Positions 1-53,195 of a DNA stretch of 64,000 nt are shown here, one piece after another. The notes below the pieces were generated by a model, which had not been told where the DNA came from, made no database searches, and worked only from the letters and a program-made list of their open reading frames with translations. The DNA is from a virus (lineage: Duplodnaviria > Heunggongvirae > Uroviricota > Caudoviricetes). The stretch lies in the IMG/VR virus record IMGVR_UViG_3300014024_000069, positions 59,159-123,158 of that record. One strand, written 5' to 3'. The number at the start of each line of letters is the position of its first letter. Within the stretch, counting starts at the first letter, position 1. A program made the position numbers and the translations under genes.

Positions 1-1048
1 ATAACCGACCAGGCACGCCCACCACACGGGCGGCACCGCAAAACAACCACCCCGAGCACCCAACACGAATGCGCTGAAATGGCATGGCACCCCCGCCGGA
101 ACCCATCACGTAAACAGGCCCCACCTGCAGGGCATGAACCCCGCAATCACCACACACGGCAATTCCTTCAAGACGCACCACCAGAGCATCCAGACGAAAC
201 ACAAAAAGAACCACCCCCGCCAGGGCGCGCCGGGACTGCAGAGACAATAGACGCGACACAGCGCCCCGGTATTGCGGTGAAAACGCATCCGCACCGATAA
301 ACAGGGTTGCCGCTCACCCCGCCACATGCTGGCGCCGCGTAAGAACCAGGCACAACAGAAGCGGCAAAGCTCCCCTGTGCCGCTCACACGCACCTTTACC
401 GGCATGCCCCTTTTTGCCAACTACCGCAGCAAAACCGACTATCCCGCACCTCCCCGCCATCCACAGCTACAGACACCATACCCGGCGCGCCACGGTTTGG
501 ACTTCCCGCAAGTACTGCCCCTCTTCACTCCACCACACGCAGAAAGCACACATGGTGGGCATTCATGGCGGCTTGCCTACCTTCTGCTTTTTACACGTGG
601 CCACGGTGGGGAAGGTTATCAACGTGCCGCCAACCACCCCAAAACAAACAGCATCCTACCGCCCCCGCCCTTCCTTCTTTCCGCCGTTGATTCATTCCAC
701 AAACCCCGATTTGCCAAACCAATAGACAAAGTGTATTATGGAAATATCACACTAGCTTTTATGTGATCAACAACCCCTCTGGTGAACAGCCCCACCAGGG
801 GGTCTTTTCGTGTAGCACCAACCAGAACCCGAAAGCATACTGTCAACCCCACGAAACCCTGCAGGGAAGCCTTTTCGACAACCCATTAGGACACGCGGCG
901 CAGGCATGCCCCCGTATCGCAGCATAAGAGCCTCAAGGTACCCCACCCCCACACCACACACGACACCCGCCGCTTCTTGTGCCCACGCACCACCCAATAA
1001 GGAACAAAGGAAGCGCACTATTCTTCTCCGCGACACGCAGACAAAAAA

Positions 1049-1070
1049 GGGGTGAGGGGGCGAAAGCCCC
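1049..1070 (+). repeat. GGGGTGAGGGGGCG-AAA-GCCCC hairpin motif, copy 1 of 5 (others at 2991..3013, 4616..4640, 5523..5544, 5627..5648)
   Basis: Each copy has GGGG(T/C)(G/A)(A/C)GGGGCG followed by a GNRA-like tetraloop (GAAA, GCTA, GACA, GCAA) and GCCCC. Three copies are preceded by CAAAA(A)G. Confidence 0.7.
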
Positions 1071-4000
1071 ATATGGTCGCACACACCAACACTTATCGAC
1101 GAACCCGACATGCCCCCCAGATCGCAGGTAAAACAAGAAGAACCCGCACTGAGGAAACAAAACGAACCCCGTCGCGCCCATCACGCCACCAGCCGCCGAT
1201 AACCGAACCATGCAGCGCCGGGCACCATACAGCCCACCGTCTCCCACGGTTACTGGGTCTTCCTTCCTTCACACGCCTGTCGTATGTGAAAAATGCCACA
1301 GCACGGACTGTGAGAAATGACGGGCACCGCCGACCACAGCAAAGCCACGACACCCCAACCTTTCCCAATACGTGAATACTGCAGCGACCCCCGACCCTCT
1401 TTTAGTTTTCCCGACGAAATCCCGTTAAGCGCAAGCGCCTGACTTCCCGACGACCCCGGCGCGCACGGACATCACCCGCACCAGCACACACCACACAGAT
1501 GAGACCATCGCCGTCAATGATTCAGGTAGGGCGACCAACCAGCAAAACACTATCGGCATGTGCGCCGCAGCCCCCCTATGCGCCTATGCGGGCACACCCC
1601 TGTGGGCTAGAGAATATTTTTGCAGAACCTGTGCACAAATTCTCTTTTTGCGAACAGACCCGAAAGCCGTCACCGCGCATTAACGCCGTAACCCCACCCC
1701 TACGAAACAGGGTGGAAAAAGCGGCGAGACACAGCCACCCATAACGTGACCATGCCCGCCGCCTCCCATACAGCCCAGATCCCTAATGTCCTCCCATTAT
1801 GGAACTCAATTAGTCAGGCCACACAAGTCTTACTTTTTCATGACCTTCTCACTAAGGAAACGAGCCTCATCCTCAGGGACAGTCAACACATCCCGCGCCG
1901 CGTCCCTATGTTTTTCATACTCACTCCACGTGAGCATTGAAGACACGCACAGGGATGCGGTACCCGCAAACCCTAGTACAACAATAGTAATCACCATTGC
2001 TGTTGCTGCACCGCCGTTAAGTAAGAAAAATAAGCCTGCCCCCGCAATAAGCGCACAAAGATTGCACTTAATCTCCGAGGAAATGTAAGAAAACTTCTTA
2101 TCCCGAGCAATCGCCTTATGCTTGTCGGCAAGCGCAAGGCGTGCGTCAATATCTTTGTGATTTTTAAATTCGTTCATGTTTATCCTACCTACATATCCTA
2201 ACTGGAACGCTCTCCACGCTAGGGGTGATTTATTTCCTTTTATTTAACAAAAACTCCACCGCGTACGGGAATGCCTTCCTCGCGGTACGCCCGCCATTTA
2301 CTGCGGGCCTGATTCCTACTTAAGCGACCACCACCGCCAAGCAACCGCTTCGTCGTCAATCCTGCTTGCCTCTTTATATGAGGAGGAAAGCAAAATCTCC
2401 TCAGACGCTTTGCTATGCATCCTTTTCGTGAGGTACTTCCCAGTAGCGAAAATGGTGAAGCAGCTACCAATCAGAACAGCAACGACACCCAAAGCCACCA
2501 CACTTAAATACTCGTCTTTCCATGCTCGGTAAGCAATGTTTTCACCAAACGAAATGATGAAAGCGCCTAACAAATACAGCATGACGGCACCTTTGCCGCG
2601 CAGACAAGCCAAACGCTCATGCTTTTCTGCGAGCCGCATAATTCTGCTTTCGTCCATTTCCTCCACAGTAGGAGATGAGTAGGAGTGCACAACGATGGGA
2701 AGATGAGATGTGGTGAATTGGTTGTAGTAGTTCATGCCTTAAATTATATATTTCCCCACAAGCCACCTCAACTAAATACCCCCACTGTTCACCCCTCTAT
2801 AGTGGAAGCGTCAACAAGGGATAGGCACACCGCCCACGCGCATTCTCCCCACCCCAACAAGCGACCACGCAAACCAACACTATTCACCAAACCAACCCCG
2901 CACTCACCATGAAAAACCATAAAGAAAAACAGGCAGACACCCCACAAGAAACCCCACCCCGTCACAAGACCACACAAACGCAAAAAAGAAGAGGGGCGAG
3001 GGGCGACATCCCCAGGAAGCAGGGAGCCAGGGGCAGAAGACAAAACACCGCCGTAAACCCCATGCCTCGCCGGGCCTGCAGTACACACCACATCCAGCGA
3101 ACAGATCCCCCCCCACCGCATCGTCACGAACCCCAGTATGCCGCCCGCCTTTGCGAAAACGCCGGTGTCGCACAAAGCAAGAAACCCAAACCACACCCAC
3201 AGGGGCACGCAGGTTCTCATGACAAAAATACCGACCCACTACCACACCGGCACCTGCCTGACGAGAAACAGTAACTGTACTCGCGCGGCCAACTATACGC
3301 GCCACCCGCATCAGTCTGCGAAATACGGCACCAACGAGAAGAAACACCAAAAACCCGTCTTGACTTCACGATATCGCCCTACCTCATCACAACCCGGCGC
3401 GCCAGGCCATGCATAGGAGCAATCGCCGTGGACAGGAAGCGACACACGGGCACATCACGCGCCAAAGGTACTTATCGACGCTCCCGCTAATCAGCGCCTG
3501 ATACTACTTCCCCGAAACCCCTCAACCGTGAATCATGCTGGAAACCCCATCAGGCATGTCTGCTTGTCCCCTACCCCGTTCACGTACCCCACAACGACAC
3601 GACCTCATCCATCCTGCGCGTGGTGTGCTGGTGACGTATGACGTAAATACGAGGGCATTCCCCTTTTTGCCGCAGGGTACCAGGAACCCCAGTCAGATAA
3701 AACCCTAAAGGAAACACCACATGGGGCACACGCCACCGCAGTATCATCAGAGGGGTGCCACTTAGGGGGCGCCTGTTCTCTCACGCGGTCAAGGTGCGAG
3801 AACCGCAAAAGAAAGTCGAATACACGTGGTTCCGCGCCAATAGTAGTGGATCTAATCTCCGCCCCCGCAGCTACTTGCCCCCTTCCGCTTGCCGCCGCGC
3901 CAGCAGATTCCACCCCCGCCTACGAACTAGCGCTTCCCTGGACAGGGCCTACATTCCTCCTTGCCCGCGTCTACCCATGCCTCACCGGCAAACGTGAACC

Positions 4001-7000
4001 ACAACAGCACCCCCCAACCCAGCGAACCCGCATAGCGACACCAACGCCGAGTGCAACACAATCACCCCACGCACCTCATCAAAAAGAAAAAGCCGCCGCA
4101 AGCCAGACACACCCCCGACGCGGCAGCCTCACACAAGCAACCTCTTCTAGATTTTCCCCACTAGCTCTCGCTCATCAATATAGTCAAGCCCATCCAGAAA
4201 CTCCCCCACGGTACGCGCAGCATCACCAGACGGTCCCCGCCACCGCTTATCGACGCTCCCGCGAAAAGGTGACCACACGCCGCAACCGCACACCTCCAAC
4301 AATGAAGCTCCAACACCACCGGCACACCCAGAGCATAATCCCGAGAACCCCACATTTCACATGTAGGACTAATCCGATTTCACGCCCTGCCTTCGTACCA
4401 GAAGAACCAGGAAACGACGAACACCACCACATACAAATGAAAAACAATGAGAAAAATCACACAACAACCCACACAGGAAAAGCGCTCCACCAAATTGTTA
4501 ACCCATCCCGCATCGCTCAGCTGTGTCGCCGCATGAACCACCACGGCAACCCAAAGAATACAAAGGAGACTTAAGAGAACACCAACACCACGGGGGCGGC
4601 GCCGTCACCATTTCAGGGGGGTGAGGGGCGCTAGCCCCCCAGCAAGAAACACCAGCGCCCCCAGTCCCGCCCCAACCACTAGCTGTCAACCAAGGAAAGC
4701 GCCCCACCTCCACAGCCCCTTGCCGCCGAGGGCAAAATCCACCCACGATGATTGCCGCAAGAACCCGCGCCGGGCACGTACGAAACCAGCGCAACCACAC
4801 TAGCGTGAGAGATTTTTGAGTGCACTGAACCCACGCCGACGTCAAAGCCACCCAAACACCCCGTCATATGACACACGGGCTTTCCTCAACACCAGCAACA
4901 AGGTTGCTGGCATAGCTGCGTTAGATAACCGCCGCGCATCACAGGGAGGCACCAGAGATCCCGCTAGACCCCAGATGTATGAACAGGGGCAAGGATTGAT
5001 GCGGAACACAGCCCCGTGACATCAGCGCCAACCCCGCCACCCATCATCCGAGAACAGTCTCCCACTTCACCACGCCAGTACCGTGTTGGCAGTGCCCTGA
5101 ACCACACGCACGCCAACGCCCCAACAAGACTCCCAATGGAGAAAAACACGATGCCCGTACAGCAACCCAGGGCACAACAACACCACCCGCCCACTACAAA
5201 TCCACACAAATCACCGCGCAGAAATGAAACCCAAAAAGAACACAACCGCAAGAAACCCCATATAGAACCCCAATCAACCACCGCTGGCACCCATGAGCGC
5301 CACAGAGACACAAAACACACGGGGGCGCGGCACAAACACCAGAACCAGGTAGGCGTTGGCGCGCAGGCAAAGACAAAAGGAAGAGAAACGATGCGGGCAA
5401 GGCGGGCGGGGCGCTCACTTGTTCCCGGCGCGACCCGTGCTGCTTATCGACGAGAACAGAAGAACCCCATGTGCCGCTGAACATCAACCGCCACTAGTGG
5501 GCACCCTTGGACTGCTTCAACTGGGGTGAGGGGCGACAGCCCCCTTATCTCCAACGCACACAAACCGGCATCCTCAGCACGGACCATACCCCCACGGGCG
5601 CGCCGCCGCCCGCCGACCAAAAGCAAGGGGGCACGGGGCGCAAGCCCCGCACAAGCACAACGCGACCAAACCAACCAAAACACAACACCCCCTTGGACGA
5701 ACACACCTAGCCCCACCCTCCCCAGCACACCCACTCCCCGCACATCACCACACAACCCCAAAAAACCACCCTCACAGCTCTTCTCCCTACACAACAACAC
5801 TCCCATAAGGAAAACCCCACGGGACACCCCAAAAGAACCGCCACAAGCCCCCAGGCCCAGGCATTCACCCGCCATGAGCCACCACAGCCCAAACCCACAG
5901 TGACACACAGACAAACCCGCCACAAAAGGGGGACAGTAACCCCCGCACAGAAACCCAAAGGAATCCCCAATAGTCACCCCACCTGCCGTACCCACACCCC
6001 CAGCCACAAACCACCCCGCACTAAAACTGTATGCAACCACCCCAAGCACCGCACCGAAACCCCCGCACAGCAACCACCACCCCACCCCTACTCGTGCTCA
6101 ACAACCGTAACCACCAGGAGGAAACCCTAATAGTGAAAACCAACAGTAACCCCCACAAAACCCAACCCCGCACAGAAACCCACAGACAATAGTAAACAAT
6201 CCCAACAACCCCCCCACTCAATGAGGACACACCCTCAAACCACCCCTATCAACACCAGCCACGGCACACCCTCACCCCAAACACCCAGTAACCAGCCCAC
6301 ATCCCTACACCACCCCCATAGCACCACAGAACAAGGCCCGGCGCGACAACACCAGCAATACCACCCACAGGCATAATCCCTGTTAGAAAAACCCAATTAG
6401 AACAACCTACGGACACCCCCTTTACCCTGCCCCTCACTCCCCTACATCAGGACACACCACAAGACCCTCAGCACAGGCACCCCTCAGTCACAGACAAAAC
6501 ACCACCAAGAAAAATCCCTACTAGGACATCTTCTAGAAAAACCAAAAGAAACCCCCTACACCCCTTCATCCCTCCCCACCAAAGAACAACCCAAAAAGAA
6601 ACACACAAAGAAAACACCCCCAGAAACAACAAAAAGACCAAAACCCCCAACAACCACACACACAAACCAACAAACAACTCGCAGGCACCCCACCCACCAA
6701 GCCCCACCATACACACAAGCCGAGGGGGAGAGCAGCAAAGCAAACTCCCCCACGAGGGTGACAAGACGAAGCCTACAAGCAAATTTGCACAGCAAAAAGC
6801 GAAGAAGACAAGACGCAGACACCTAGACAAAACACAGACAACGAACCAACAACACCCCAAAGGGCGTGGCAGTTGGGAGAGCATCTGAGTTTTGACTACT
6901 TGCGTGAATGGTGGGGCGCAACCACGTGACCACACCAGCGCCCCGACCCGAAAACAGAATATATGCACCATAATGCATGTATTGTGTTTGAGGGGAGGGG

Positions 7001-7120
7001 TTGTGGTTGTGTCCGATTTTTACTGTTTTTTGTTTGGAATCCCACATATGTCTAATCAGGGCACTGTTCTAAGATTGCACCCGGACTGCAAAAATATTAG
7101 GTGGAAACCCTTGAATTAAG

Positions 7121-7159
7121 GGTGTTTTCCCGTGTTTCTGGAGACTGGACTATCACTTA
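7121..7159. repeat. Left arm of a 38/39-bp inverted repeat (partner at 7443..7481) flanking a ~280-bp AC-rich segment
   Basis: ggtgttttcccgtgtttctggagactggactatcactta is the reverse complement of taagtgatagtccagtctccagaaacacggggaaacact (1 indel). Confidence 0.85.
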
Positions 7160-7442
7160 ACGGGAAAACCGTCGCAAAAACATCAAACAATTAACGATGC
7201 GTACACCCGTGAAACACACACCCCGCACACAAAAACCAACAACTCTGCGCAACAAAACCACACAAACAAAAACCAAAACACAAAAGTGAGCGCAGCAATG
7301 CGACAGATCAAGGCGATCACTCATACGACAGCGGCCGACACCCAAACAGGCAAAGACCTCTATTCGTTAGTGTCAGAAACGCAAAACCAGCGGCACAACA
7401 ACCCCAAGCCACACAGCAACAAAACCCCAGGTCGCAAAAAAT

Positions 7443-7481
7443 AAGTGATAGTCCAGTCTCCAGAAACACGGGGAAACACTT
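7443..7481. repeat. Right arm of the inverted repeat
   Basis: See the left arm. Confidence 0.85.
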
Positions 7482-8293
7482 CTCAACCACACCCCACGGC
7501 AGCACCACCAACAAGCGAGGGCATCATCACCAAAAGACCAACCCTTACGCAAGAACAAAACCCAAAGACACACAGCAACACGCCCCACATCTTGATAAGG
7601 CGACGGACGTCAGAAAACACATGCTCCGTATCCGATGGATACAACCGCACGCCTATTGCGACCCCCAAAAAGATAACCCCCTACAGTTATCCGAACACCC
7701 CTGACGAGCAGAACATAGTACGCGGACCTCGAACCAGAACCCCACGCAAAACCATCACGTGCCCAGCGCGCCGGGCACTCACAGGCAAGAGAACGACCGC
7801 ACGTCAACTATGCGAACTGTCCTTATACGCAACAGACCACACAACGACACCGAAACCACAAATGCAACATACCCCCATGAAAGGCCGATCACGCCACACC
7901 CACAATAGGCGTACCCGCTCGCCAGCACGTGCGTGCATAATGAAACCCCCACCTGCTCCACATAAAGTAAAACAAGCGGGGGTGATTCACTCCACTCAGA
8001 AAAAGATGGGTTCCTAAAACCCAAAACAAAGAATAACACACAGTAAGCAAGAAAGCGAAACGACACACAAGCACTAATCCAAACGCCCGTGCCACCCCAC
8101 TACAAGTCAAGACCCCAACAGGAGCTAATAGCCCACCCTCTTACTTGCTCCCACAAGGGATCATTGGAAATACACCCCTCAGAAACTCCGCCAGCATTTC
8201 ACCTAGATAACCCACCCCAACCACACACCACCCCGCCGCAAGTTTTCAAAGACGACACCCCATGTGGTACACTATGACCATGCACATGCGCAT

Positions 8294-8378
8294 GGAAGTG
8301 TGGCAGAGCGGACTATTGCACCTGTCTTGAAAACAGGAGTGTCGAGAGGCACCGTGGGTTCAAATCCCACCACTTCCG
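8294..8378 (+). tRNA. tRNA-Ser (anticodon TGA), type II with long variable arm; no encoded CCA
   Basis: Cloverleaf read directly: acceptor GGAAGTG/CACTTCC, D-stem GCA/TGC, anticodon stem CCTGT/ACAGG with loop CTTGAAA, long variable arm AGTGTCGAGAGGCACC, T-arm GTGGG-TTCAAAT-CCCAC, discriminator G. Confidence 0.8.
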
Positions 8379-8636
8379 CAAAACAACCACCATCACCCCT
8401 TGCAGGGAACACTGATGGTGGTTTTCCTTATGAACACACCCACAATGCAACCCTTGCGAGCATCCTTGCCTCCAACACTATTCCTAAACATGGGCTGGTT
8501 CAAGAAGACCAGCCACACCCCCACCCACACTCTGGTTGCCCTGGTTGTCTCCGCCACGAAACCCGCACAAGAAAACCCTGCGACACACCCCGCATGTGTT
8601 TTGACCAGCGCCCCGAAACGCAATAAAATACACTAC

Positions 8637-8900
8637 ATGGAAAAACAACTAGAACAACCCTCCGAACAACTGCGCGACGTGGCATCCAGCAACCACAACT
8701 ATGTTGTGTCGCTGCACCAACAGCTTGTCGAGCACCGCAAGCAACACGGCCCGTCGATGGAGGAAATGGAAGAGCGCACAGGATGGAGCGTCGAAAAGCT
8801 GGAAAACTTTGAACGCTACGACGCTAACCCCACCCTCAACGATATTGCGCGGTACGCCACCGCCCTAGAGGTGCGCATCCAAGACATACACAAACCGTAG
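8637..8900 (+). CDS. XRE-family (Cro/C1-type) helix-turn-helix transcriptional regulator, ~87 aa
   Basis: C-terminal part of the 8400..8900 ORF from the internal ATG: LVEHRKQHGPSMEEMEERTGWSVEKLENFERYDANPTLNDIARYATALEV is a canonical XRE HTH. The upstream part of that ORF is P/T-rich compositional read-through. Confidence 0.6.
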   Translation: MEKQLEQPSEQLRDVASSNHNYVVSLHQQLVEHRKQHGPSMEEMEERTGWSVEKLENFERYDANPTLNDIARYATALEVRIQDIHKP

Positions 8901-9079
8901 TCAACGCGGACAGCAATGAATCAATATTCCTCACACAACAACACGGCTAGTGCGCTTACTTAACCGCCAAACCCTTTTTCATGAAGCCCGCCCTGACAAC
9001 ACAGAGCACAAAAACTTAACACTCGCTTAGACACACGTAAACAGCTACAAGACAAAAACCGGCAAAGGAGAAACAAAAC

Positions 9080-12000
9080 ATGTCACATGAAACAATTGAA
9101 CAACTCATCAAGACCGACAAGATTCACCCACCAAAAAGAATCAAGCACCCCGATCATGTACATGACTTCCCCGCAATATGGGGGATGCTCACCAGGAACG
9201 TTGCCGACAACAGGAAAGAGTCAACAGTCAACCACCTAGTGGCACTCACTAGCTGGCTATCAGAAATTGAGGTGGCAAAAACAAAAGCCACCACACCAAA
9301 CACCATCACCAAAACAGAAACGAAAGCAGGCAAGCCCCACACCGCACAGGAGGCATGGGGCGCTGAAACCGAAATTAAGCTAAGCAACGAGGAAGCCCTA
9401 GACAAAGACACCTACCTTCTCACCACCAAAGGATGGGTGAAAATCACCGACATTACCCACAACAGTGAAATTGCCCAATACCACCCTGGCACCCAAACAA
9501 TCAGCTTCACCAAACCACAACAAGTAACCCAGTTTGAGGCTGAATACCGATACAAATTCACCAACACGCAAACCGGTGTGGTGCAAATCGTGTCACCCAA
9601 CCACCGCATGTACTTTGAACGCCTAAACCCCGACACCGGCATGTGGGAAGACCGAGTATGTCTTGCCCACGCATACGAGTCGGAGGTCAAGAAAGGCGAA
9701 ACACGTCTCCGTGTTGCCGCACCCACCCGCATCACCAGAAGGCGCATGACAGACGCGGAAAAACTCGCACTCGTCATGCAGCTACTCCCCATCCATTACA
9801 GTGATGGTGAATACACCATTGAATGCGGATTCGGAAACGTCGAAACCGTCCAAGAATACGCCCGCGCCGCCGGAGTGACCGTCAAATCCACCACCAACTA
9901 CAACGACGACCGCTACAGCGTCACCCTCGCACCCAGCCGTGAAATCAGCAAACAGCTACACCCCGTGTTCCGGGGATACCGGCAAGAAAACGGCAACCAC
10001 TACGCACACGACTACATGAACGTAGTACTATCCGTTTCCGACATCTCCTGCCTACCAGGGCACCACTACCGCATAAACGTGCCCCTCGCCAAAACCATCC
10101 AAGAGGCAGCGTTCGCCGCCGGGTACAAAACAACCCGCACCGGCAACACTATTGACATTTCCATCACAAGCGCCACCACGCCCGCCAGCACCGATCTTGT
10201 GGTAGAGAAACTAGACGGTGAAACAACCTACTGCGTCACCGTCCCCACAACATTCATCGTCACCAAACACCAGCAATCAACAACCCCCGTCATCACAGGC
10301 AACTGCCTTACCCGTGAACACGTCGCAGACAGTCTTGACGCATCCCACAACCCAGGGTGGGGCGACAGCGGCGAAATCATGAACGAACTAGCCCACGAAA
10401 TCAACTGCTGCCTACCCGACAACCTGGAAAACCAACTAGACGGCATCGTCAGCGGTGTTTTAAGCCACGTTATTTACGAACCACACATGGCGAACATCAC
10501 CTACGACCCCTCTGTTCATGACACGCAATCAATAAGGTCACTGCACTATGGGCGCATGGTGAATAAAACCAAACCAAACAGTAACCAGTGCATCTGGGGA
10601 AACACCCTCATCCTCACAAACAAAGGCTACATCCGCGCCAACGAAATCAACAACGATAACAGCATTGAAATAGCGTGCTACAACCCAAACACACAACAAA
10701 TCACCCACGACTCAGTGTTCAGCATCATTGGTGGCAGCACCCTGCCCGCAGGCATGGTCAACACCATCAAAACAAGCCCACAACAACTATTCCACGTAGC
10801 AACAACCCACGGACCCCGCAACCTCACCGCACTGGAAATCTCACAAGAAAAAACCACCTTCTGGAACCACGCACCCAGCATCCTGGAAAACAAACCCTTC
10901 AAAACCTCCAACGAAGGAACCAGCATGCCCCACTACGCAACCGGGCTTCTGGTGACACTACTCAACGAAGCCGGATTCCCCACCGAAGAGAAACCAGAAA
11001 AAGAAAACCACATCAAATACAACACCTTCCGCATGCCAGACGAACTCGCGGAAGAAATCATCAAAGGAAAATACTCAAAAACCCTCAAACAAGCACGCAT
11101 CAACGAATACCGATACCTCGTCATTGATGCCGAAAAACTCCCCACCATCAACATCCACGCAATCGCCGCAAACCTTAACGAAAAACAACTAGAAAAACTC
11201 TACGACTTTGCGGTAACAATCACCCAAAAAATCTACGGGGCAAACGCACTCACCCACTCCGAAACCCTGAAACAACTCAAACAAGCAGTAAAGGAAAAAA
11301 CACTCACACAACCAGAAACACAATACACAGAAGAAGACGCAAAAATACTTGCCGTATACAGTGAGGAATACGGTGAGAAATTCTGGCTGGAACAACCCGA
11401 ACACACCCGCAGCATGTGCAGCATCATGACACCAACCGGCTACTACATCGCCCGGTCACGAAACGAACAAAAATCAACCCCCGTCATCATGCGCTGCGAC
11501 AACGCCAACCAAGAATACGACGACACCATCAAACAACTACGACAAGCCCTCACCCCCGAACAGAAAAGCGACTTCATCAAAGCCGTGAACAACCTCGCCC
11601 AACACCACATCAACATCACCCCCTGCCTCTACCCCGGAAAAGGAAAGAATTTCATAAAACTAACCCAAACAACTATCATTGAACAAGTACACAGCCTCGC
11701 AACCTGCGTGGGCGCACCAATCCACACACTCCAAATACCAACACAAAAGAAAGGAGAAATCATGACAACCAAACAAGACAAAAACCTGCCCTACAGGGCA
11801 ATCAACCTGGGTGACGACAGACACTACCTCACATACAGCACCTCCCCGCAAACCACTGTGGAGCTACTGAGGGTCAACACGCCTGACAAGAAAACCAATA
11901 AGACAAAATACGCCAAACGCGCTGCCCTACTCGCAGCCCCTGCAGTTGGAACCTTCTCAGGACTAATCCTCCACTCCGCCGTAGGAATCCCACTCAGCGC

Positions 12001-12394
12001 GGTATCAATCCTTGCGATCATCGCAATGATCGCGTGCATGGTGCTGAAAAAAGACGACACCGTGGAAGTAGTGCAACAAGCACTCGGTGCCGCACCCGTC
12101 AGCCTGAACACCGTGAACACCCTGGCGCGGGTGAAGAACTCACGATCACAACGTGAAAAAGAAGTACTACAAAACCGCAGGGGCACCATCATTGATGCGT
12201 TCACCAACGACCGCATCATGGAGGAAGACATGACCCGTCTCCTTGATGAGATGATTCACCGCGTCAACAACGAACTGGAAAGCCTTAGCGATGAACGCAA
12301 AGCAGAATCCAAGACAATAGCCGACGCATACTTGGATGCAGACGCGGCTATCTACAGCGGATCCGAACCGATCATCCCAGAACTGGAACTGTAA
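9080..12394 (+). CDS. Large modular membrane protein, paralog 1 of 3 (1104 aa): conserved N-terminal domain, two Hint-like modules, TM helices, conserved C-terminal domain
   Basis: SD AAAGGAG upstream of the ATG. N-terminus LVALTSWLSEIEVAKTK is shared with the two downstream paralogs. Hint-block-A-like motifs are YLLTTKGWVKITDI and CIWGNTLILTNKGYIRANEI..IACYNP; a block-B-like motif is VATTHGP. Shared mid-motifs: TPTGYYIAR, ITPCLYPGKGKNFIK, CVGAPIHTLQIP. Hydrophobic helices lie around aa 950-1000. The C-terminus RRGTIIDAFTNDRIMEEDMTRLLDE...SKTIADAYLDAD is shared with the paralogs. Confidence 0.8.
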   Translation: MSHETIEQLIKTDKIHPPKRIKHPDHVHDFPAIWGMLTRNVADNRKESTVNHLVALTSWLSEIEVAKTKATTPNTITKTETKAGKPHTAQEAWGAETEIKLSNEEALDKDTYLLTTKGWVKITDITHNSEIAQYHPGTQTISFTKPQQVTQFEAEYRYKFTNTQTGVVQIVSPNHRMYFERLNPDTGMWEDRVCLAHAYESEVKKGETRLRVAAPTRITRRRMTDAEKLALVMQLLPIHYSDGEYTIECGFGNVETVQEYARAAGVTVKSTTNYNDDRYSVTLAPSREISKQLHPVFRGYRQENGNHYAHDYMNVVLSVSDISCLPGHHYRINVPLAKTIQEAAFAAGYKTTRTGNTIDISITSATTPASTDLVVEKLDGETTYCVTVPTTFIVTKHQQSTTPVITGNCLTREHVADSLDASHNPGWGDSGEIMNELAHEINCCLPDNLENQLDGIVSGVLSHVIYEPHMANITYDPSVHDTQSIRSLHYGRMVNKTKPNSNQCIWGNTLILTNKGYIRANEINNDNSIEIACYNPNTQQITHDSVFSIIGGSTLPAGMVNTIKTSPQQLFHVATTHGPRNLTALEISQEKTTFWNHAPSILENKPFKTSNEGTSMPHYATGLLVTLLNEAGFPTEEKPEKENHIKYNTFRMPDELAEEIIKGKYSKTLKQARINEYRYLVIDAEKLPTINIHAIAANLNEKQLEKLYDFAVTITQKIYGANALTHSETLKQLKQAVKEKTLTQPETQYTEEDAKILAVYSEEYGEKFWLEQPEHTRSMCSIMTPTGYYIARSRNEQKSTPVIMRCDNANQEYDDTIKQLRQALTPEQKSDFIKAVNNLAQHHINITPCLYPGKGKNFIKLTQTTIIEQVHSLATCVGAPIHTLQIPTQKKGEIMTTKQDKNLPYRAINLGDDRHYLTYSTSPQTTVELLRVNTPDKKTNKTKYAKRAALLAAPAVGTFSGLILHSAVGIPLSAVSILAIIAMIACMVLKKDDTVEVVQQALGAAPVSLNTVNTLARVKNSRSQREKEVLQNRRGTIIDAFTNDRIMEEDMTRLLDEMIHRVNNELESLSDERKAESKTIADAYLDADAAIYSGSEPIIPELEL

Positions 12395-12450
12395 AAACCG
12401 CCAATCCCGCACCCCCTCTATACCACCAACAACACGAAAGGAAGCACAAC

Positions 12451-14455
12451 ATGTCATATGAAACAATCAGGGAACTAGCAACCGTCAAAGAAACCACCGA
12501 AATACGCAAAATGCAACTAAGTCACTGGTGTAGGAGATTCTTTGACGGTGAGGAATACTACAAATTCTGGGAACTGCTCATCAAGCAACTAGGCAGCAAC
12601 AGCAGGAGCAATGAAACCGACCCAGATCTCGCAAACCTCGTGAACTTCCTATCGGATATTGAGCACGCTAAGCGTAAAACACACGAGCTAATCCCCGCCG
12701 CAAAAGAAAGGGATGCATCATACTTCCCGTCATGGATTACGACAAAAGAAAGAATCTCAATCATAAAGGAGATGATGAAAAATGAAGAATTTATCAATGC
12801 TCCACAAAAATCACTGAACAGAAAAGAAGAAGCAGCTCTAGATAATCCAGAGCTGCAAGAACTAGAACGCAATCCTCAATGGAGCGACATTAATGATCTC
12901 ATCACAGAACTTGCAGAAGAAACAAAGAAGCACCTTTTTGGAACATCGGATTACAAGCTTCATGATGTTGTAGGTGAAGTCTTGTCAAGACTCATCTACA
13001 CCCCACACGCACAAGCCCTCTCCCAAACAAACACTAAGTTGTCTGGAATCATCCAGAAAACCAACAGCACCCCTGGAGGAGGCATTGGCTACAACGCTGA
13101 ACTGCTCACCAACAAAGGCTACATCAGAATCACTGAGCTATATCGCAATCAAGATGCCGAAGTAGAAATTGCGTGCTACTGCCCAGAAACAAAAGAAACA
13201 CTCTACTATCCACAATCAGAAGTGATCATCAAAAAGTCATCTGGGGACACAGACGCATCGGTGAACGGCATTAAGGTAAATAGCAAACAACGAATACACA
13301 CAAAAACGAAAAAATGGAAACGCGATGTCAGCATAGAGCACGCTAAGAAACTCAACGTCTCAGAGGACACGAAAACAAGCACGTCGCCCTACTGGGGAGA
13401 AAGAGACATAATTTTCAAAATCCTCAGCCCAACAGGGTACTGCATCGCAAAGAAAGCTTCACTCGACGAAGAGGAATCCGTCACCCTGTGCTGCAAACCC
13501 GTGGAGGAGGAAACCGAAGAATTACTACTAAACGGCTTCAGGTACAGCAGAGAACGCGAAAAAGATGGGCGACATTGCCCTACGACTAGCACAAGCGCAC
13601 GTAGATGCCCTGCAGTCCATCTACGACGACCCTCACATCATCAGGGAAGTGGCGCAAAACATCAGAGAGCAACTAAGCTACATCAATACATGCTGGGAAG
13701 CGCCTCACCGCAAACTCAAACTACCCAAAAAACCCACCATCTACACCAAAACCCTAAAGAAAGGAAAGAAAAAAGAAATGGCTTCCTCAAAAGTAACCCG
13801 TGAGGGAGGAATCAAACTAGATGACACACACGCACTTGAATTTCAAGAAATCAAAGGAAACAAGTACTATGTCATGCTCCGCGAGTACGAAAAATGGGAA
13901 AGCGACGAAAAAGAAAACCGTGCAGTCAGTCTAATCGACCGGTCAATAAAAGCACTCAAAGGGACAATAGAATTGGCAGCCTCCATGCTCGTGATCCTTT
14001 GGATCTTCAACCTATTCTCCGTACCAGCATTGTTCATGCACCTAACACAGGCAATTATGCTCACCACGCTCCTCGTTGCTGTACCTGCCATCTTCATCAA
14101 AAGCTACTCCAAAGAAGAACAATGCATCAACTGGTCTACGATACTAGATGAAAATTTGGGGCGTGTAGCAGCTACCATCCCAGTAAACAAGGAAACCTTT
14201 GATTCGTTGTACGAAATCTACCAGTACGACAACAAGGAAAACCTGGGATACCTACAGGGCAAAAACAGCATTATCATTGATGTCTTCACAAACGAAAAGG
14301 TCACCGATAAAGACTGTACACGTTTCATTCAAGAAACCGCCAAACGGGCAAAGCAGGAAATGATAGCAGTGAAAACTGAACGCAATGAGGTATCAAAAAC
14401 CATTGTTGACGCATACCTTACGGAATCATACAGCGAATCCACGCTGAACGACTAG
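12451..14455 (+). pseudogene. Paralog 2 of the modular membrane-protein family, disrupted by a +1 frameshift near 13540-13565 (ORFs 12451..13803 and 13565..14455)
   Basis: ORF A carries the conserved N-terminus (LANLVNFLSDIEHAKRKTHE), the Hint-like module (ELLTNKGYIRITEL..EIACYCP) and SPTGYCIAKK, then degenerates into arbitrary sequence. ORF B in the +1 frame carries the family motifs INTCWEAPHRKLKLP (cf. CVGAPIHTLQIP and CLGAPLRDFKITP), the TM helices and the conserved C-terminus GKNSIIIDVFTNEKVTDKDCTRF...SKTIVDAYLTESYS. The first ATG-initiated ORF in the B frame begins at 13565; the frame itself is open from ~13527. Confidence 0.65.
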
Positions 14456-14580
14456 TAAAGCACAAAGCAAAGCGCCCATTCTTCACCCGCAAACATGGGC
14501 AAGATGGGCGCTTTGCTTAAACAACAACATCTCTCCCCAACTAACCTCACCTCCACTACTGCTGACTGCTAGGACACGCA

Positions 14581-17040
14581 ATGTACAAAACAATAAAACA
14601 ACTAGTAGCAAACAAAAGACCCAAAAGAAACCTCACCAAGTTTGAGGACGGACGAGAGTTCTACGCATTCTGGGAGAACCTTTCAGAAAACCTTAACGAG
14701 TCGAAAATATCAAAAGAAAAACAAAATGAACTCATCTCGCTTGTCAGCTGGATGTCTGAAATTGAAGTAGCAAAACGCGACACCCACGAGGTTGAAGACG
14801 CCAATGAACCCGTATTCGGTGAACGACTCATGTTTAACGCCCACACCGATGAAACCAGCCAAGACAGGTACGTAATTGACATAGTTCAACGGTCACCCCA
14901 CGTGGAGGGTCACCGTAAATGGAAAGCAGGAAGAGAGCACGTAAATAAACTCACCAGCGCACTTTCCGTCCATCGCGGCGTGTCAGAAAAATACATTCAT
15001 TCCATCACTGGTGAGATCATCAGCCGGGTCATATACAGCCCTCATACAGAGGCGAAAATAGGATACGACACCGCAGGGATATACCGTGTACGTCAACCCA
15101 TCAACAAAGAATACGGAGGAAGCGTCGGGAACAACACCAGCATTCTCACCAACGGTGGATACATCAATATTGAACAACTACGCAAAGCAAAACAATCAAA
15201 GGAATCATCCAGGTCCATCAAGGTTGCCTGCTATAACCCAGTGTCGAAAGACATAGAGTACGTTGAGCTGTCAAAAATAGACATCAAGGAAGACAACCAC
15301 AACGTTCCAATAGCGCGCGCCAACAATGTTGAATCCAGCGATACCCAACTAGTACACGTTGATACAAAGCAGGGTCCACTGAACTTAACCGTCAGTGAAA
15401 TCATGCACGTTGAGAAATTTGACCCCACCTGCTTCACGAACCCCGCCAATGAAGCGTTGACGAAGACTCTCAACGACATCAATCACAATGCCAGCAATGG
15501 GAATCTCGGAACATTCAATACATCAGTGCTTTTATCCATGCTCGAAGAAGCAGGAGTACCCAATCATAGTGGAAGGTTCAGAGTTTCCGACTATCCAAAC
15601 CTCACGGACAAAATCAAGAAGTTGGACAAACAGGGTTACCTAAATCATGTCAGCGTTTCTAGAAACGGAGAAGAGGTCATCCTTGACGAAGAAGGATTCC
15701 AGGAGAGCCTTAAAAGCGAAAACAGGATCTTGGACACGGATGAATTGCTTGACCTTTACGCATTCTCTGGCGATGTTCATGAAATCCTTAACGAGAAGAA
15801 TGATTTCATCTCACAAACGTACAACGAACTGGAACGAAAAGTTAAGGAACTCGCGCAGCAAAATAGTCTAACCACACCAGAAAGCAAAGTAATCTCAACC
15901 TGGCACATGGCAATCAGCAAATATCCAGCTGGGAAGGGGAAGAAGTTTCTTCAAAGTCAAAAAATGTTCCACATCAAAACGCCAACAGGGTATGTTGTGG
16001 CGAAAAGGAACCAGTCACCAGTAATCTTGTGTGGAAAGTCAATAAACCACGATACACAGTATATTCACACCATTGGGGATAGAGAGTTTCAAGCAAACAA
16101 CTGCATAGCTGACGCGGTAAACGAACTTGCCCTGTACCACATCAAAATACTGCCGACCATATACAAGCATGAAGACAAAAATTTCATCAAACAGATGGAA
16201 TACTCAATCGTCAAGCAGGCGCACCACATATGCTCATGTCTCGGTGCTCCTCTACGCGACTTCAAGATAACACCACTCGTACAAGAAGAGGGAAACAGCG
16301 TACATCAACAAGAAGTGCAAGACATGGCACCAGGCACACTGCCACCACCAACCAACAAGAAAGAAGAGGTAAAAACAATGAGTGACGACGACAAGAACTT
16401 GATAGACAAAATTAGAATGAGCACAATAGACATACTACTTGACGAAAAATATCGTCTCGACATCCGTCTTGGGCCTAACAGATCAATTTTTGTTGAAATA
16501 GACAGAAACTATGTCAAAGAAAATAAAGAACAAGATCGCAGACTTGAGCAAAAGTACTACTTCACGTTACCCCTAGTTGCCATTTTAATGGCTTCTTCTA
16601 TATTGGTTTATAGAATAGTAGGCAAGATTAGCTACATCAGTGAAGAAATCGCAGGACTACTGTCATCTATGTTGATATTCATCAGCTTAAGTCTAGTCTT
16701 ATCACTTCTCCACCAATGGGCGACAACTGTAAAAAGAGAAGTAGAGGAAATCGCCAAGGTGTCTGTTGATACTAACACCGCAAATATTCTAATAAAGTCT
16801 ATCGAGTCACGCTACACCGAAGACACAGATCTACTTAGAAAAAGAAGCGGCATCATCGTAGATGCGCTCACCAACAATGAACTCACCTCTGACGACAAAA
16901 CTAGGTTCATGAGTGAGCTTGCTCAACGAATTAGCAGCGAAATGGAAAGTGAGAATAAGGAGCGGGAAGAAAAATCAAAAGCTATACTATCGTCATACCT
17001 TGAATCAGACTCAATCGTCTACGGAACAGGCAAGGAATAG
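14581..17040 (+). CDS. Large modular membrane protein, paralog 3 of 3 (819 aa), Hint-like module with Ser at the block-A position-1 equivalent
   Basis: N-terminus LISLVSWMSEIEVAKRDTHE; Hint-like module SVGNNTSILTNGGYINIEQL...IKVACYNP; KTPTGYVVAKR; ILPTIYKHEDKNFIKQ; CLGAPLRDFKITP; three hydrophobic helices; C-terminus KRSGIIVDALTNNELTSDDKTRFMSE...SKAILSSYLESDS. Confidence 0.8.
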   Translation: MYKTIKQLVANKRPKRNLTKFEDGREFYAFWENLSENLNESKISKEKQNELISLVSWMSEIEVAKRDTHEVEDANEPVFGERLMFNAHTDETSQDRYVIDIVQRSPHVEGHRKWKAGREHVNKLTSALSVHRGVSEKYIHSITGEIISRVIYSPHTEAKIGYDTAGIYRVRQPINKEYGGSVGNNTSILTNGGYINIEQLRKAKQSKESSRSIKVACYNPVSKDIEYVELSKIDIKEDNHNVPIARANNVESSDTQLVHVDTKQGPLNLTVSEIMHVEKFDPTCFTNPANEALTKTLNDINHNASNGNLGTFNTSVLLSMLEEAGVPNHSGRFRVSDYPNLTDKIKKLDKQGYLNHVSVSRNGEEVILDEEGFQESLKSENRILDTDELLDLYAFSGDVHEILNEKNDFISQTYNELERKVKELAQQNSLTTPESKVISTWHMAISKYPAGKGKKFLQSQKMFHIKTPTGYVVAKRNQSPVILCGKSINHDTQYIHTIGDREFQANNCIADAVNELALYHIKILPTIYKHEDKNFIKQMEYSIVKQAHHICSCLGAPLRDFKITPLVQEEGNSVHQQEVQDMAPGTLPPPTNKKEEVKTMSDDDKNLIDKIRMSTIDILLDEKYRLDIRLGPNRSIFVEIDRNYVKENKEQDRRLEQKYYFTLPLVAILMASSILVYRIVGKISYISEEIAGLLSSMLIFISLSLVLSLLHQWATTVKREVEEIAKVSVDTNTANILIKSIESRYTEDTDLLRKRSGIIVDALTNNELTSDDKTRFMSELAQRISSEMESENKEREEKSKAILSSYLESDSIVYGTGKE

Positions 17041-17046
17041 ACAACA

Positions 17047-17718
17047 TTGACTGCGAAAAACAGCAAAGAAAAAACCGCCATAGACTTAGGCGACGGCAGG
17101 AGACTGGAACTATACAGAGACTATGGCAGAGATCCCAAACACCATCCCGTATCTGAAATCACGCTAGTAAAAGAACCACCAGAGAGCAAGGACACCAAAA
17201 AGATTGTCAATACAGCGCTTTTATCTGCACTGAGCGCGGTAATCGCACTGGTGTCACTCGTATTGTCTTTCGTCATGTATGGCAACATGTGGGGCTGGTT
17301 AGTGCTCATATTGGTTACCGTAGCATCTGCAGGGCTTGCCATTAGAAACCTCATCTCTACATTGCGGTTGATTCAGTTCAACTATCGAGAAAAGGAAGAG
17401 GGGAGGATTGACATTTACCATATGAACGAGCGGTACCTTGATGAAATTGAACGTCTCCAGGCAATCAACATCATCATGCCTGACCTTATAAAGATGCAGT
17501 CTAAACAGATCATTGAAAAGCTCGCAGACGGCAAACAGGACTACCAGTTGAAAAGACACCAACTACGGCGAATCATCGAGGATATGGAAAAAGATGCGGC
17601 TGAAACCTACAATCCCAATCCTGACAACAAAAAGAGCATTTTCATGCAAAAAAATGACACGGAAGAAACTGTCAATGTAGGTGATGTGTCGTCAAACGAA
17701 ACTCAAAACCAACAGTAG
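17047..17718 (+). CDS. Hypothetical membrane protein (223 aa, TTG start), two TM helices followed by a charged coiled-coil-like tail
   Basis: ORF directly follows paralog 3, with AGGAA 8 nt upstream of TTG. Hydrophobic stretch ALLSALSAVIALVSLVLSFVMYGNMWGWLVLILVTVASAGLAI. Confidence 0.5.
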   Translation: MTAKNSKEKTAIDLGDGRRLELYRDYGRDPKHHPVSEITLVKEPPESKDTKKIVNTALLSALSAVIALVSLVLSFVMYGNMWGWLVLILVTVASAGLAIRNLISTLRLIQFNYREKEEGRIDIYHMNERYLDEIERLQAINIIMPDLIKMQSKQIIEKLADGKQDYQLKRHQLRRIIEDMEKDAAETYNPNPDNKKSIFMQKNDTEETVNVGDVSSNETQNQQ

Positions 17719-17732
17719 ACCAGAATCAATAC

Positions 17733-17763
17733 CCCCAGAGTTTTTACCCTCTGGGGTTTTATT
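17733..17763 (+). terminator. Rho-independent terminator after the paralog operon
   Basis: CCCCAGAG-tttttacc-CTCTGGGG hairpin followed by TTTTATT. Confidence 0.65.
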
Positions 17764-17810
17764 CTCTTCTGAGATAATCAATGCTGTAAACGAGATCAGG
17801 AGGGGCTATA

Positions 17811-18323
17811 ATGTACGTTATGGATAACGACCAACACAGCAGGGCTGTTGTCAAGGAAATCAGCAAAAACTGGTATAGACTACTTCCACAATCAAGCGCA
17901 GGCGACTATCAATCATGGTTACTCAGGGAGGGCGATGATGCAGAAAAACACACCACACTGAATAAAAAAGTCACCCTTCTTGATGTCGAGAACCAGGAAG
18001 ACAAAAACCAGATAAGGTCACTGGAAAATGGGGGAACTTTCACAATAAAAGATGAGCTACTTGAATACTATTTGCGAAAACTGGGTGTGAAGAAAACACC
18101 CGAGTTAAAGAACGGTATCGTTAAGCTAACAGTATCCCCTGATGTTTCTCAACAGGGTAGACTTACTGGATCTACTGCCGTCTTGGTCCGTAAGCTAAGC
18201 TCTTCTCTTCACCTGCAGATTGCCCCGGAAACCGGCATTGATGGAAAGCTTGCGCGCGTTGTTCTGCACGCCCGCATGGTTGATGTAGACACTAAGAAAG
18301 CGGTTTTTGCTGTTCTGGAATAA
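17811..18323 (+). CDS. Hypothetical protein (170 aa)
   Basis: ORF with coding-strand A+C bias; no recognisable motif. Confidence 0.45.
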   Translation: MYVMDNDQHSRAVVKEISKNWYRLLPQSSAGDYQSWLLREGDDAEKHTTLNKKVTLLDVENQEDKNQIRSLENGGTFTIKDELLEYYLRKLGVKKTPELKNGIVKLTVSPDVSQQGRLTGSTAVLVRKLSSSLHLQIAPETGIDGKLARVVLHARMVDVDTKKAVFAVLE

Positions 18324-22916: not shown

Positions 22917-23357
22917 TTACTGCTGTCCTACCGGCTGGAGTATGAGCGTGAGCTGTTGCCCTTGATCGGGTGTGGTGGTGCTCGTGTTGTCGGGTTTAGG
23001 GTAGCTTCCTTCTTGGCGGTAGTCTTCTTCATCTAGTTCCCATTCTTCCCCGTTGCTGTCTAAGACGATGGTTTGTAGGCATGAGATGCATCTGGTGAGG
23101 GATAGTAGGACTATTTGTTTGTCTAATTGGTGTTTCTTTTTTGTGGTGATGTCTGTCAGTGTGGTGACGGCGTGTGTTTGACCGCAGATACTTAAGGGCC
23201 TGATGTTTGCTCCGCATTCGCATTCTATGCCTGTGTTTCGGTATAGTCCGCTGCCTATGTTTCCGCACATGAAGGGTGTCTTTTCCCATTCTCCCCACAC
23301 GATGGGCTGACCATCCCATTTTTGGGGTAGGCGGGTTAGTTTTTCCATGTACTTCAT
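22917..23357 (-). CDS. Cys-rich hypothetical protein (146 aa), possible zinc ribbon
   Basis: Cys clusters CGN..CEC and C..C; ATGA start/stop overlap with the upstream ImmA-like gene, suggesting an operon. Confidence 0.45.
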   Translation of the reverse strand: MKYMEKLTRLPQKWDGQPIVWGEWEKTPFMCGNIGSGLYRNTGIECECGANIRPLSICGQTHAVTTLTDITTKKKHQLDKQIVLLSLTRCISCLQTIVLDSNGEEWELDEEDYRQEGSYPKPDNTSTTTPDQGQQLTLILQPVGQQ

Positions 23358-52907: not shown

Positions 52908-53195
52908 GTGATATTCGTCTCCTAAGTTGCGTGGGATATAGAACAAGAAAAAATTGGCACCCCGGCGTGGGCGTGCACTTCCTTATTTGCCTTGTTGCGG
53001 ATTGCTCTGTGTTGTGCCCGCCGAGGTGAAAGGGGTTAAGTTGCAAGCGCTGCTTATGTAGGGGCGCTAGAGCTTAGCTTACAGGGTTGTGTACAGGCGC
53101 TGGGGTACTGCAGTGGTGTTGTGTGCCGCCCTCCCATTTTGGGGGTTGCTGAGGGCGGCACATGAATCCATTCTATGCGGTTTTCTGGCGGGTGC

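Follow-up and report, generated by a model that had tools for sequence, protein, structure and literature searches.

A hypervariable, strand-skewed non-coding tract in a ~321-kb phage-like element, tentatively read as a regulatory or non-coding-RNA island

The tract, its genomic setting and its coding status

An A+C-rich tract at positions 1–8290 of a 64,000-nt stretch of viral DNA (IMG/VR record IMGVR_UViG_3300014024_000069, positions 59,159 to 123,158; the whole stretch is called the window) was analysed by strain comparison, substitution analysis and RNA folding. The window lies within a metagenome contig of 321,838 bp (L001; window position 1 is L001 position 922). Three further contigs of 321.2–321.8 kb from other samples begin at different points of the same sequence, which points to a complete ~321-kb element, circular or circularly permuted; the region is also carried by shorter contigs, including a 234-kb IMG/VR viral contig. 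The uncultivated element was treated as a huge phage or phage-like megaplasmid. Neither close relatives of the element nor similar DNA were found in phage and plasmid collections, and a search for the host, in which a 1104-aa protein encoded beside the tract and the penicillin-binding protein (PBP) of the window were compared with genome contigs, gave zero matches; comparing NrdE and the primase shed no light on it either. The rest of the window codes for NrdE, NrdH, a DnaG-type primase, an SbcD-like exonuclease, an RNA ligase, an RIIA-like ATPase, a 1296-aa lysin-type protein (M23 + NlpC/P60), ArdC, a PBP1-type protein and a 1601-aa ClpB-like protein; the whole window carries 11 tRNA genes, namely a tRNA-Ser at the tract edge, as the initial annotation had proposed, and ten others. 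The tract, its genes and its right-hand neighbours are as follows.

1–8290, no strand assigned: non-coding A+C-rich tract; left part 1–4240 strain-variable, core 4240–8290 in all strains examined
1830–2177, minus strand: predicted membrane-protein gene, 115 aa; intact in the three relatives carrying it, differences mainly at codon position 3
2316–2735, minus strand: predicted membrane-protein gene, 139 aa; intact in L010, in L004 with length-changing gaps and no in-frame stop
2771–2743, minus strand: promoter-like site TTGAGG-17-TATAAT, predicted to serve the two small minus-strand genes
1655–1800, minus strand: three-way junction with a long GC-rich hairpin and U-run, ΔG −73, z −7.1; predicted operon terminator
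8294–8379, plus strand: tRNA-Ser(TGA)
8385–8425, plus strand: terminator hairpin of tRNA-Ser, directly downstream of the tRNA
8637–8900, plus strand: Xre/RstR-like helix-turn-helix (HTH) gene, 87 aa, within the hypervariable domain described below
9080–12394, plus strand: 1104-aa gene, strongly constrained protein; the hypervariable domain runs through it

The true start of the tract lies 147 nt upstream of the window, at the stop of a 103-aa open reading frame (ORF), and its length here is 8.44 kb. The longest ORF in 1–8290 has 242 aa, in agreement with the limit given by the initial annotation, and the ORF-free gaps elsewhere in the window are all <0.8 kb. For the coding test, the window was compared with six distinct relatives, and ORFs of ≥50 aa in 1–9100 (n = 74) were scored for openness and for an excess of changes at codon position 3. 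Only 1830–2177(−) was intact in every carrier with changes concentrated at codon position 3; 2316–2735(−) showed this partly and is, on this comparison, probably a real gene. The remaining ORFs were broken by frameshifts or stops in relatives, or showed position-(1+2)/position-3 ratios that were near or >1; within near-invariant sequence a few short ORFs remained open, with translations and ratios that gave no consistent coding signal. None of the Shine–Dalgarno-led ORFs of 20–49 aa had a coding signature. The adjacent 1104-aa gene was used as positive control: 196/302 of its singleton changes fell at codon position 3, and identity to the relatives was 0.97–0.98 at codon positions 1+2 and 0.80–0.85 at 4-fold degenerate sites. 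Searches of the tract ORFs, of strain-specific ORFs of the relatives and of neighbouring ORFs with Pfam, PHROGs, NCBIfam and PADLOC returned nothing accounting for the tract, and a tblastx comparison of the tract with the remaining window and with L006-specific genes gave compositional noise only and zero protein remnants. By these sequence comparisons the tract is non-coding except for a ~1-kb putative minus-strand operon. The earlier statement that the block has the polarity of plus-strand genes without coding signal is borne out, by strain comparison rather than by ORF length, and the statement that it lacks credible ORFs holds for nearly the whole block but not for the two small genes (~1 kb), to which conserved coding potential was confined.

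Cryptic coding (stop reassignment, frameshifting or many tiny genes) and assembly artefact were weighed as explanations and given next to no probability. Stop-codon recoding is known from huge phages, and the gene caller placed several ORFs in the tract; against this, TAA, TAG and TGA are all frequent in all six frames of the tract (each 22–57 times per plus frame of 1–12,500), so that there is no simple stop-codon recoding, no suppressor tRNA was found among the 11 window tRNAs, and the ORFs are unconserved and lack position-3 enrichment. The tract was recovered in every independent assembly reaching the region: it lies in the same place in seven other assemblies (different samples, assemblers), and a Logan contig of a different run, covering 7443 onwards, differs from the window by 1 nt in 14,952. 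Both explanations were excluded on the grounds of stop codons, ORF non-conservation and recurrence in independent assemblies. The view that a non-coding tract of this length is unusual for a phage or plasmid was upheld; a literature search turned up no comparable strand-biased non-coding regions in jumbo phages.

Hypervariability, conserved islands and motif-bounded junctions

Tract length differs between strains: 5.4 kb in L006, 8.4 kb in the window strain and L008, at least 9.2 kb in L004 and L010, and 11.5 kb in the IMG/VR strain (L003 extended with L025), an overall range of 5.4 to at least 11.5 kb in which only 4240–8290 is common to all strains examined. The left half is strain-specific, being lost or replaced in some strains, and the left neighbours differ as well: L006 and L003 have minus-strand ORFs of 302–308 aa and 660–692 aa, the window strain other DNA. 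These ORFs (L006 640–3853; L003/L025 extension) have a GC content of ~0.6 and a Gly/Ala/Ser-rich middle and gave zero family matches. Aligned tract blocks are mostly 75–86% identical with many indels, i.e. at about the level of 4-fold sites in the 1104-aa gene. Set in this background are islands of 95–100% identity, retained even in two distant strains, at 689–824, 6033–6187, 6680–7036, 7066–7188 and 7409–7490, with further ones at 5403–5448, 5499–5544, 5613–5654 and in several short blocks within 2709–3500. Identity at 6680–7036, at 708–812 and in the arms of an inverted repeat (see below) is 97–100% even in the two distant strains, and promoter-like sites fall within the conserved islands. 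The proposed comparison with related elements yielded near-invariant nucleotide islands, but no protein conservation outside the two small genes.

The tract is the non-coding portion of a ~13-kb hypervariable, strand-skewed domain extending from about −150 to 12,660. Beyond it (12451–18323) the window strain, L008, L010 and L004 are 99.1–99.7% identical and variation is tree-like. Within the 1104-aa gene every strain pair is 92–95% identical regardless of relatedness elsewhere, with differences that are mostly synonymous; 4-fold sites diverge by ~16% between strains that are otherwise 99.5% identical. Its 175 informative sites are distributed among all partitions, and the four-gamete test fails for 55% of site pairs. 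Pairwise differences in the tract are 9–31% (near-identical window/L008 pair aside). Strains with 99.1–99.7% identity beyond the domain differ by ~5% in the 1104-aa gene and by 9–28% in the tract, and the pattern across the domain is star-like and reticulate. The right edge of the domain is sharp, at ~12,660, ~200 nt into the next gene, and the strong C>G skew ends nearby, at ~11,900–12,000. L008 equals the window from −900 to ~5700 and is divergent from there on, which places one recombination junction within the tract. The pattern of the domain is consistent with a recombination hot spot to which diverged relatives contribute short patches. A diversity-generating retroelement target was rejected, since changes from A make up only 77/302 singletons in the 1104-aa gene, all four bases change, and the tract spectrum is similarly mixed; a deaminase-type signature is likewise absent from the substitutions in this gene. 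The 1104-aa ORF is chimeric: residues ~33–100 resemble the N-terminal part of intein-bearing ribonucleotide reductase small subunits (NrdF-like), residues ~101–413 and ~504–890 are intein-like, and the C-terminal part, encoded near the end of the strong skew, seems on inspection by eye to contain transmembrane segments. The ORF belongs to a tiny family and is under strong purifying selection.

Two kinds of short element recur in the tract in one orientation, as listed here.

1049–1070, plus strand: GNNA-loop hairpin copy 1, GGGGTGA-GGGGGC-GAAA-GCCCC
2993–3013, 4618–4638, 5523–5543, 5628–5648, plus strand: GNNA-loop hairpin copies 2–5
1092–1101, 3471–3480, 4246–4255, 5443–5452, plus strand: S motif CTTATCGACG, a 10-nt direct repeat, at homology breakpoints between strains
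1443–1452, plus strand: degenerate S motif CTTCCCGACG, direct, at a homology breakpoint

The hairpin motif (GGGG-YRM-GGGGC-GNNA-GCCCC) has five copies, all on the plus strand and syntenic, where the chance expectation is 0. Five hairpins had been called GNRA: the number stands, but only two are strict GNRA (GAAA, GCAA), all five being GNNA. The first G and last A of the loop are constant in all copies and strains and the two middle bases vary; the copy at 2993 has a mismatched stem in the window strain. When IMG/VR was searched for the hairpin motif, the extended S motif and the 357-nt island at 6680–7036, matches came from the same phage lineage or were chance matches, and the extended S motif is at chance level outside this lineage. 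The IMG/VR contigs L020, L021 and L026 (AT-rich phage, GC 0.33–0.37) have a GGGGTAAGGGGCGAAAGCCCCGAACC hairpin in common, identical in all three and nearly so in its flanks; it is unrelated to the window element and has no Rfam matches, and Rfam gave zero matches on other phage contigs with the hairpin motif.

All S-motif copies are kept in the relatives, and three independent junctions lie exactly at CTTATCGACG. In L003 the segment between the 1092 and 1443 sites is missing, cut exactly at both, and the left flank of the first meets the right flank of the second; the left flank of the 4246 site exists in one version in the window strain and in another in L003, L006 and L010; and to the right of the 5443 site L004 and L006 carry another hairpin instead, one without homology to the flank found here. 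Other indels (e.g. a ~590-nt indel at 5030) are not motif-bounded. An integron cassette array was rejected: no integrase is encoded by the neighbouring ORFs examined, and the junction motif is a non-palindromic 10-nt direct repeat. Regularly spaced repeats, as in a CRISPR or tandem repeat array, were not found, and a diverged tandem array or cryptic repeats were likewise dismissed, as self-comparison scored no better than block-shuffled controls, short motifs excepted. One antisense CTTATCGACG copy lies outside the tract, inside the NrdH-like glutaredoxin gene (53196–53441, minus strand) upstream of nrdE.

An 11-mer reported in four copies, CCCGGCGCGCC, is present in three exact copies in the block, with ~8 sites at one mismatch, and is no less typical of the window's other intergenic DNA. 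Window-wide it is ~ten-fold over-represented and concentrated intergenically (e.g. 21771, 24041, 35224, 36071, 38542/38571), sometimes as inverted pairs that form bidirectional terminator-like hairpins. The palindromic-core motif GGCGCGCC occurs 21 times vs 1.85 expected, enriched in intergenic DNA and in the tract; this GC-rich motif is a general intergenic feature of the genome and often forms half of a terminator stem. Three GGCGCGCC-type motifs are also contained in the ClpB-like ORF (24500–29305), whose 1601 aa are ~2x the normal length, the N-terminus being greatly extended and the AAA modules lying ~520 aa apart. Tract-specific avoidance of palindromes was ruled out, because 6-bp palindromes are scarce genome-wide: they reach about half of expectation in the coding regions of the window, and the tract is less depleted (38 vs 55 expected).

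The position of the Xre/RstR-like HTH gene within the hypervariable domain raised the possibility of an immunity- or incompatibility-type regulatory region under frequency-dependent selection, in which the tract would be the operator or RNA part of a diversifying HTH system. We consider this improbable. It would account for deep, star-like allelic divergence with a sharp edge in otherwise 99.5% identical genomes, for the enrichment of GGCGCGCC in intergenic DNA and the tract, and for the conservation of the inverted-repeat arms; but the HTH match is far under the family cut-off (30.8 vs 80 bits), the HTH gene region is only moderately variable (76–96% identity per 200-nt window), 5–11 kb far exceeds any known operator region, and the divergence of the 1104-aa gene is mainly synonymous, unlike that expected from diversifying selection on protein specificity. 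A sigma70-like promoter of the HTH gene (8601–8629) ends 7 nt before the ATG, which suggests a leaderless mRNA.

Base composition, folding and RNA-like elements

The extreme A+C bias described earlier was confirmed (plus strand A 0.31, C 0.36, G 0.19, T 0.14), with a GC skew of −0.22 to −0.44 and an AT skew of +0.15 to +0.59 in the tract. A+C is 0.59–0.64 in the left half and, in the core, 0.73 here and 0.79–0.81 in relatives; no window gene exceeds 0.67 overall, so that the skew of the core was not inherited from decayed coding DNA. The initial annotation held the coding strand to be A+C-rich everywhere else in the window. This is correct for a subset of genes (A+C at 4-fold sites 0.72–0.83) and wrong for the rest (0.24–0.66). 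The A+C-rich class comprises genes of either orientation, at 9080–12394, 23357–23896, 36133–36837, 50688–52946 (nrdE) and 59014–59799; since the 4-fold bias follows the coding strand only in this subset of both orientations, it is not a replication-strand effect. The gene at 23357–23896 (minus strand) codes for a CapP/ImmA-like M78 peptidase (PADLOC capP, E 1.9e-13).

Singleton changes were polarised by majority rule. In the tract, A/C-to-G/T changes outnumbered G/T-to-A/C changes by 150 to 78 (p = 2e-6), in every lineage, and the 4-fold sites of the 1104-aa gene showed the same asymmetry (40 vs 16). Per-site rates in the tract are near-symmetric, with a predicted equilibrium A+C of ~0.53 vs the observed 0.68–0.73. 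The ratio of A<->C transversions to all other transversions was ~2:1 in the tract, 3:1 in the 1104-aa gene and ~1:1 in the flank. Recent changes therefore run against the skew, which implies either that composition is held by selection or conversion bias or that an inherited skew is slowly decaying.

The near-coincidence of the skewed and the hypervariable domain across coding and non-coding DNA points to a regional, DNA-level process. The tract could, with a probability that we judge low, be a DNA-level control region (an origin, a strand-displacement or R-loop zone, or the first-entering or packaging end) in which one strand is often unpaired; this would produce the strand skew as well as the strong local variability, as in the mitochondrial control region. 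In line with this are the conserved blocks in a variable background, the flanking tRNA gene, the long hairpins and inverted-repeat pair, the polar S motif at recombination junctions, and four G-quadruplex motifs on the G-rich strand of the tract vs 0 on that strand elsewhere. The signals expected of such a region were not found: DnaA boxes are not clustered (tract, 1 match; window, 3 vs 6.9 expected), the cumulative skew, a check proposed by the initial annotation, has no sign change at the tract, and the tract has neither regularly spaced iterons (S-motif copies are 350–2400 nt apart) nor an AT-rich unwinding element. Moreover, the recent substitution spectrum is nearly strand-symmetric and hence is not the source of the skew, and the contigs are circularly permuted and hence silent on termini. 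The earlier suggestion of a replication, partition or packaging region accordingly gained no positive support.

Folding was scanned in 150-nt sliding windows on both strands against shuffled sequence, and Rfam 15 was run on 1–9100 at the gathering threshold and at E ≤5, where it returned tRNA-Ser only. Structured islands were limited to 6680–7036 and, on the minus strand, 1655–1800 and 7940–7990. The idea of a long structured RNA was not borne out, fold z being near 0 over most of the block; that of a non-coding RNA locus survives in a weaker form only, as a terminated small-RNA-like (sRNA-like) unit with a promoter and a near-invariant 357-nt structured element with a terminator. The following elements were distinguished.

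711–739, plus strand: sigma70-like promoter TTGCCA-17-TATTAT, inside conserved island 689–824
742–806, plus strand: sRNA-like unit, ~65 nt; small hairpin, GC-rich hairpin, UCUUUU; ΔG −23.1, z −3.5
5700–6680, plus strand: C/A-rich, almost structure-free as plus-strand RNA (0 to −26 kcal/mol per 150 nt, mostly −5 to −13)
6680–7036, plus strand: near-invariant 357-nt element; fold z −8.4 on the plus and −5.9 on the minus strand
7100–7131, plus strand: second small hairpin, U-rich 3' side (GUUUUCC), abutting the U-rich start of the left inverted-repeat arm
7122–7479, no strand assigned: 358-bp inverted-repeat-bounded element; 38-bp arms 7122–7159 and 7442–7479, 282-bp interior
7945–7983, minus strand: 17-bp hairpin with G-U pairs, z −5.6; stable on the minus strand only, because of the G-U pairs

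The sRNA-like unit is ~99% conserved in three aligned relatives (L010, L009, L003), with variable flanks, and 711–806 has the layout expected, as far as sequence can tell, of an intrinsically terminated small RNA gene: a conserved promoter, a short segment and a terminator. Identity of 5700–6680 between strains is 85–91% (near-identical L008 pair aside); it holds the 155-nt conserved block 6033–6187, and the degenerate direct repeats noted at 5.9–6.3 kb proved to be a 23-nt repeat in three copies (5933–5955, 6053–6075, 6158–6180). In the 357-nt element a multi-branch domain (6701–6917) is closed by a 19-bp long-range helix (6701–6719 with 6899–6917), and the 3' end consists of a ~30-pair imperfect hairpin (~6925–7015, ΔG −49.6 kcal/mol) and a U-rich run, which are predicted to act as a strong plus-strand terminator. 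Of the few variable positions of the RNA-like domain most lie in loops or a bulge; a handful of pairs are broken in the terminator stem, and in two strains a 21–25-nt self-complementary insertion lies within a hairpin loop. The 38-bp inverted-repeat pair is present as described, with arms that are 97% complementary and more conserved than the interior. The geometry (38-bp arms, 282-bp interior) fits an inverton, but this was rejected because 8/8 genomes share one orientation. Position 1 of the Logan contig mentioned above (L002) is window position 7443, exactly at the right arm; this start is assumed to be due to a repeat exceeding the assembler word size, not to inversion.

That the tract is functionless DNA, i.e. 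decayed genes and recombination debris tolerated in a very large genome with a few real signals embedded, is doubtful, and several results speak for it: divergence at about the synonymous level, many indels with lengths that are not multiples of three, absence or replacement of half of the tract in some strains, fold scores equal to those of shuffled sequence, no internal paralogy beyond short motifs, and the 2:1 excess of A/C-to-G/T over reverse changes, as expected for a relaxing inherited skew. Yet the core is kept in every strain despite ~15–20% synonymous-level divergence, 5700–6680 is above the identity of 4-fold sites, core A+C is 0.73–0.81 vs ≤0.67 for any window gene, protein remnants are undetectable and several islands are near-invariant. 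The decayed gene array put forward by the initial annotation is possible for the left half, with its synonymous-level divergence and A/C-to-G/T excess; the core is too A+C-rich for it.

A tentative reading and its relation to known systems

Our preferred reading, which we put somewhat below an even chance, is that the tract is a hyperplastic regulatory or non-coding-RNA island in a hypervariable, strand-skewed domain, not a single element. The conserved islands would be plus-strand RNA genes or RNA 3' domains plus transcription signals, and the 10-nt repeat CTTATCGACG would mark module junctions, blocks being shuffled there by short-homology or site-directed recombination, much like the promoter/stem-loop cassettes of T4-type hyperplastic regions. 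Selection on a transcript or DNA strand that stays unpaired may keep the plus strand rich in A+C, and sequence may turn over by recombination with diverged relatives, composition being more conserved than sequence.

A number of points weigh against this regulatory or RNA island. Transcription, its direction and the RNA ends of the islands are inferred, and only one canonical plus-strand promoter was found in the A/C-rich DNA, with a terminator directly after it. Nearly all windows of the fold scan have z between −2 and +2 on both strands. In the 357-nt element 0/108 predicted pairs are changed on both sides, a count that comes from eight nearly identical sequences with too little variation for double changes, and polymorphisms of the inverted-repeat arms fall at the same two positions in both arms with no clean covariation. 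The S motif has no recognisable promoter geometry and is unevenly spaced to the hairpins. Most tract divergence is at about the synonymous-site level of the 1104-aa gene, as it would be in junk; the A/C-to-G/T excess can also be read as a simply decaying skew; and mosaic consensus sequences from mixed-strain metagenome assemblies can inflate the reticulate signal.

The facts on composition also allow the whole domain to be read as a compositional element, in which selection would keep a multi-kb, A/C-only strand unable to pair with itself while its sequence is replaced at a hot spot. This reading, which we regard as a long shot, would make the tract a long Rho-prone, protein-binding 'sponge' or spacer transcript or, alternatively, a phage counterpart of the mitochondrial control region, kept single-stranded or as an R-loop; in either form it would be a type of phage genome element without a described precedent. 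The skew and the hypervariability are common to the tract and the intein-bearing gene and recent changes oppose the skew, which opens two questions to testing: whether composition itself is selected, and what makes huge phages locally hypervariable. Because genes normally fill a phage genome, a 5–11-kb non-coding stretch kept in every strain is unusual. It gives a clear example of modules being shuffled at a 10-nt motif and supplies three candidate new non-coding RNAs or DNA elements, i.e. the 357-nt structured element, the ~65-nt sRNA-like unit and the 358-bp inverted-repeat-bounded element.

The hyperplastic regions of T4-type phages contain promoter-early stem-loop (PeSL) cassettes, in which a strong sigma70-like promoter and a terminator stem-loop flank small ORFs (PMC2839356, PMC4122927). 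The tract resembles them as a strain-variable region between conserved genes in which short regulatory-type motifs, including stem-loops, recur in one orientation, and in that insertions, deletions and replacements between close relatives have junctions at motifs, here three at CTTATCGACG. It differs in that the S motif has no consistent −35/−10 geometry and adjoins a hairpin at only one or two of its five sites, a GNNA hairpin lying within 100 nt at 2/5, that the shuffled blocks are without conserved ORFs, and that the region is strongly strand-skewed. PeSL cassettes show the closest behaviour described, yet two of their three defining features are missing here.

The animal mitochondrial control region is non-coding, hypervariable and ~1 kb long, has short conserved blocks, and owes its skew to deamination asymmetry. 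It shares with the tract the hypervariable, non-coding and strand-asymmetric character, an A+C-rich sense strand and an adjoining tRNA gene; it has an origin function, a promoter pair and a displacement loop, whereas the tract is known from sequence alone, is 5–11 kb long and lacks deamination asymmetry in its recent substitutions. Phage tRNA regions with small stable RNAs, such as the species 1 and 2 RNAs of T4, are 1–2 kb long and densely packed. Like the candidates described here, these are non-coding RNA genes with their own terminators beside tRNA genes in a large phage; unlike them, the candidate units here have no Rfam match and are separated by DNA that is mostly without detectable structure or signal.

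Antitermination sites of the nut (boxA–boxB) type are found in lambdoid phages and rRNA operons. The likeness lies in a 5-bp GC stem with a GNRA-like loop and a short linear motif along a long untranslated C-rich, G-poor (Rho-prone) stretch; in the tract, however, the order and spacing of hairpin and linear motif vary (22 to ~480 nt), a boxA sequence match is missing, and an N-like or Q-like protein was not identified. In the rstR/ig-2 immunity region of CTX-phi, a small HTH repressor gene stands beside highly divergent non-coding DNA. Here, too, an HTH gene adjoins non-coding DNA far more divergent than the remaining genome, but its family match is sub-threshold, and the region is ten times longer and extends through a large conserved protein gene.

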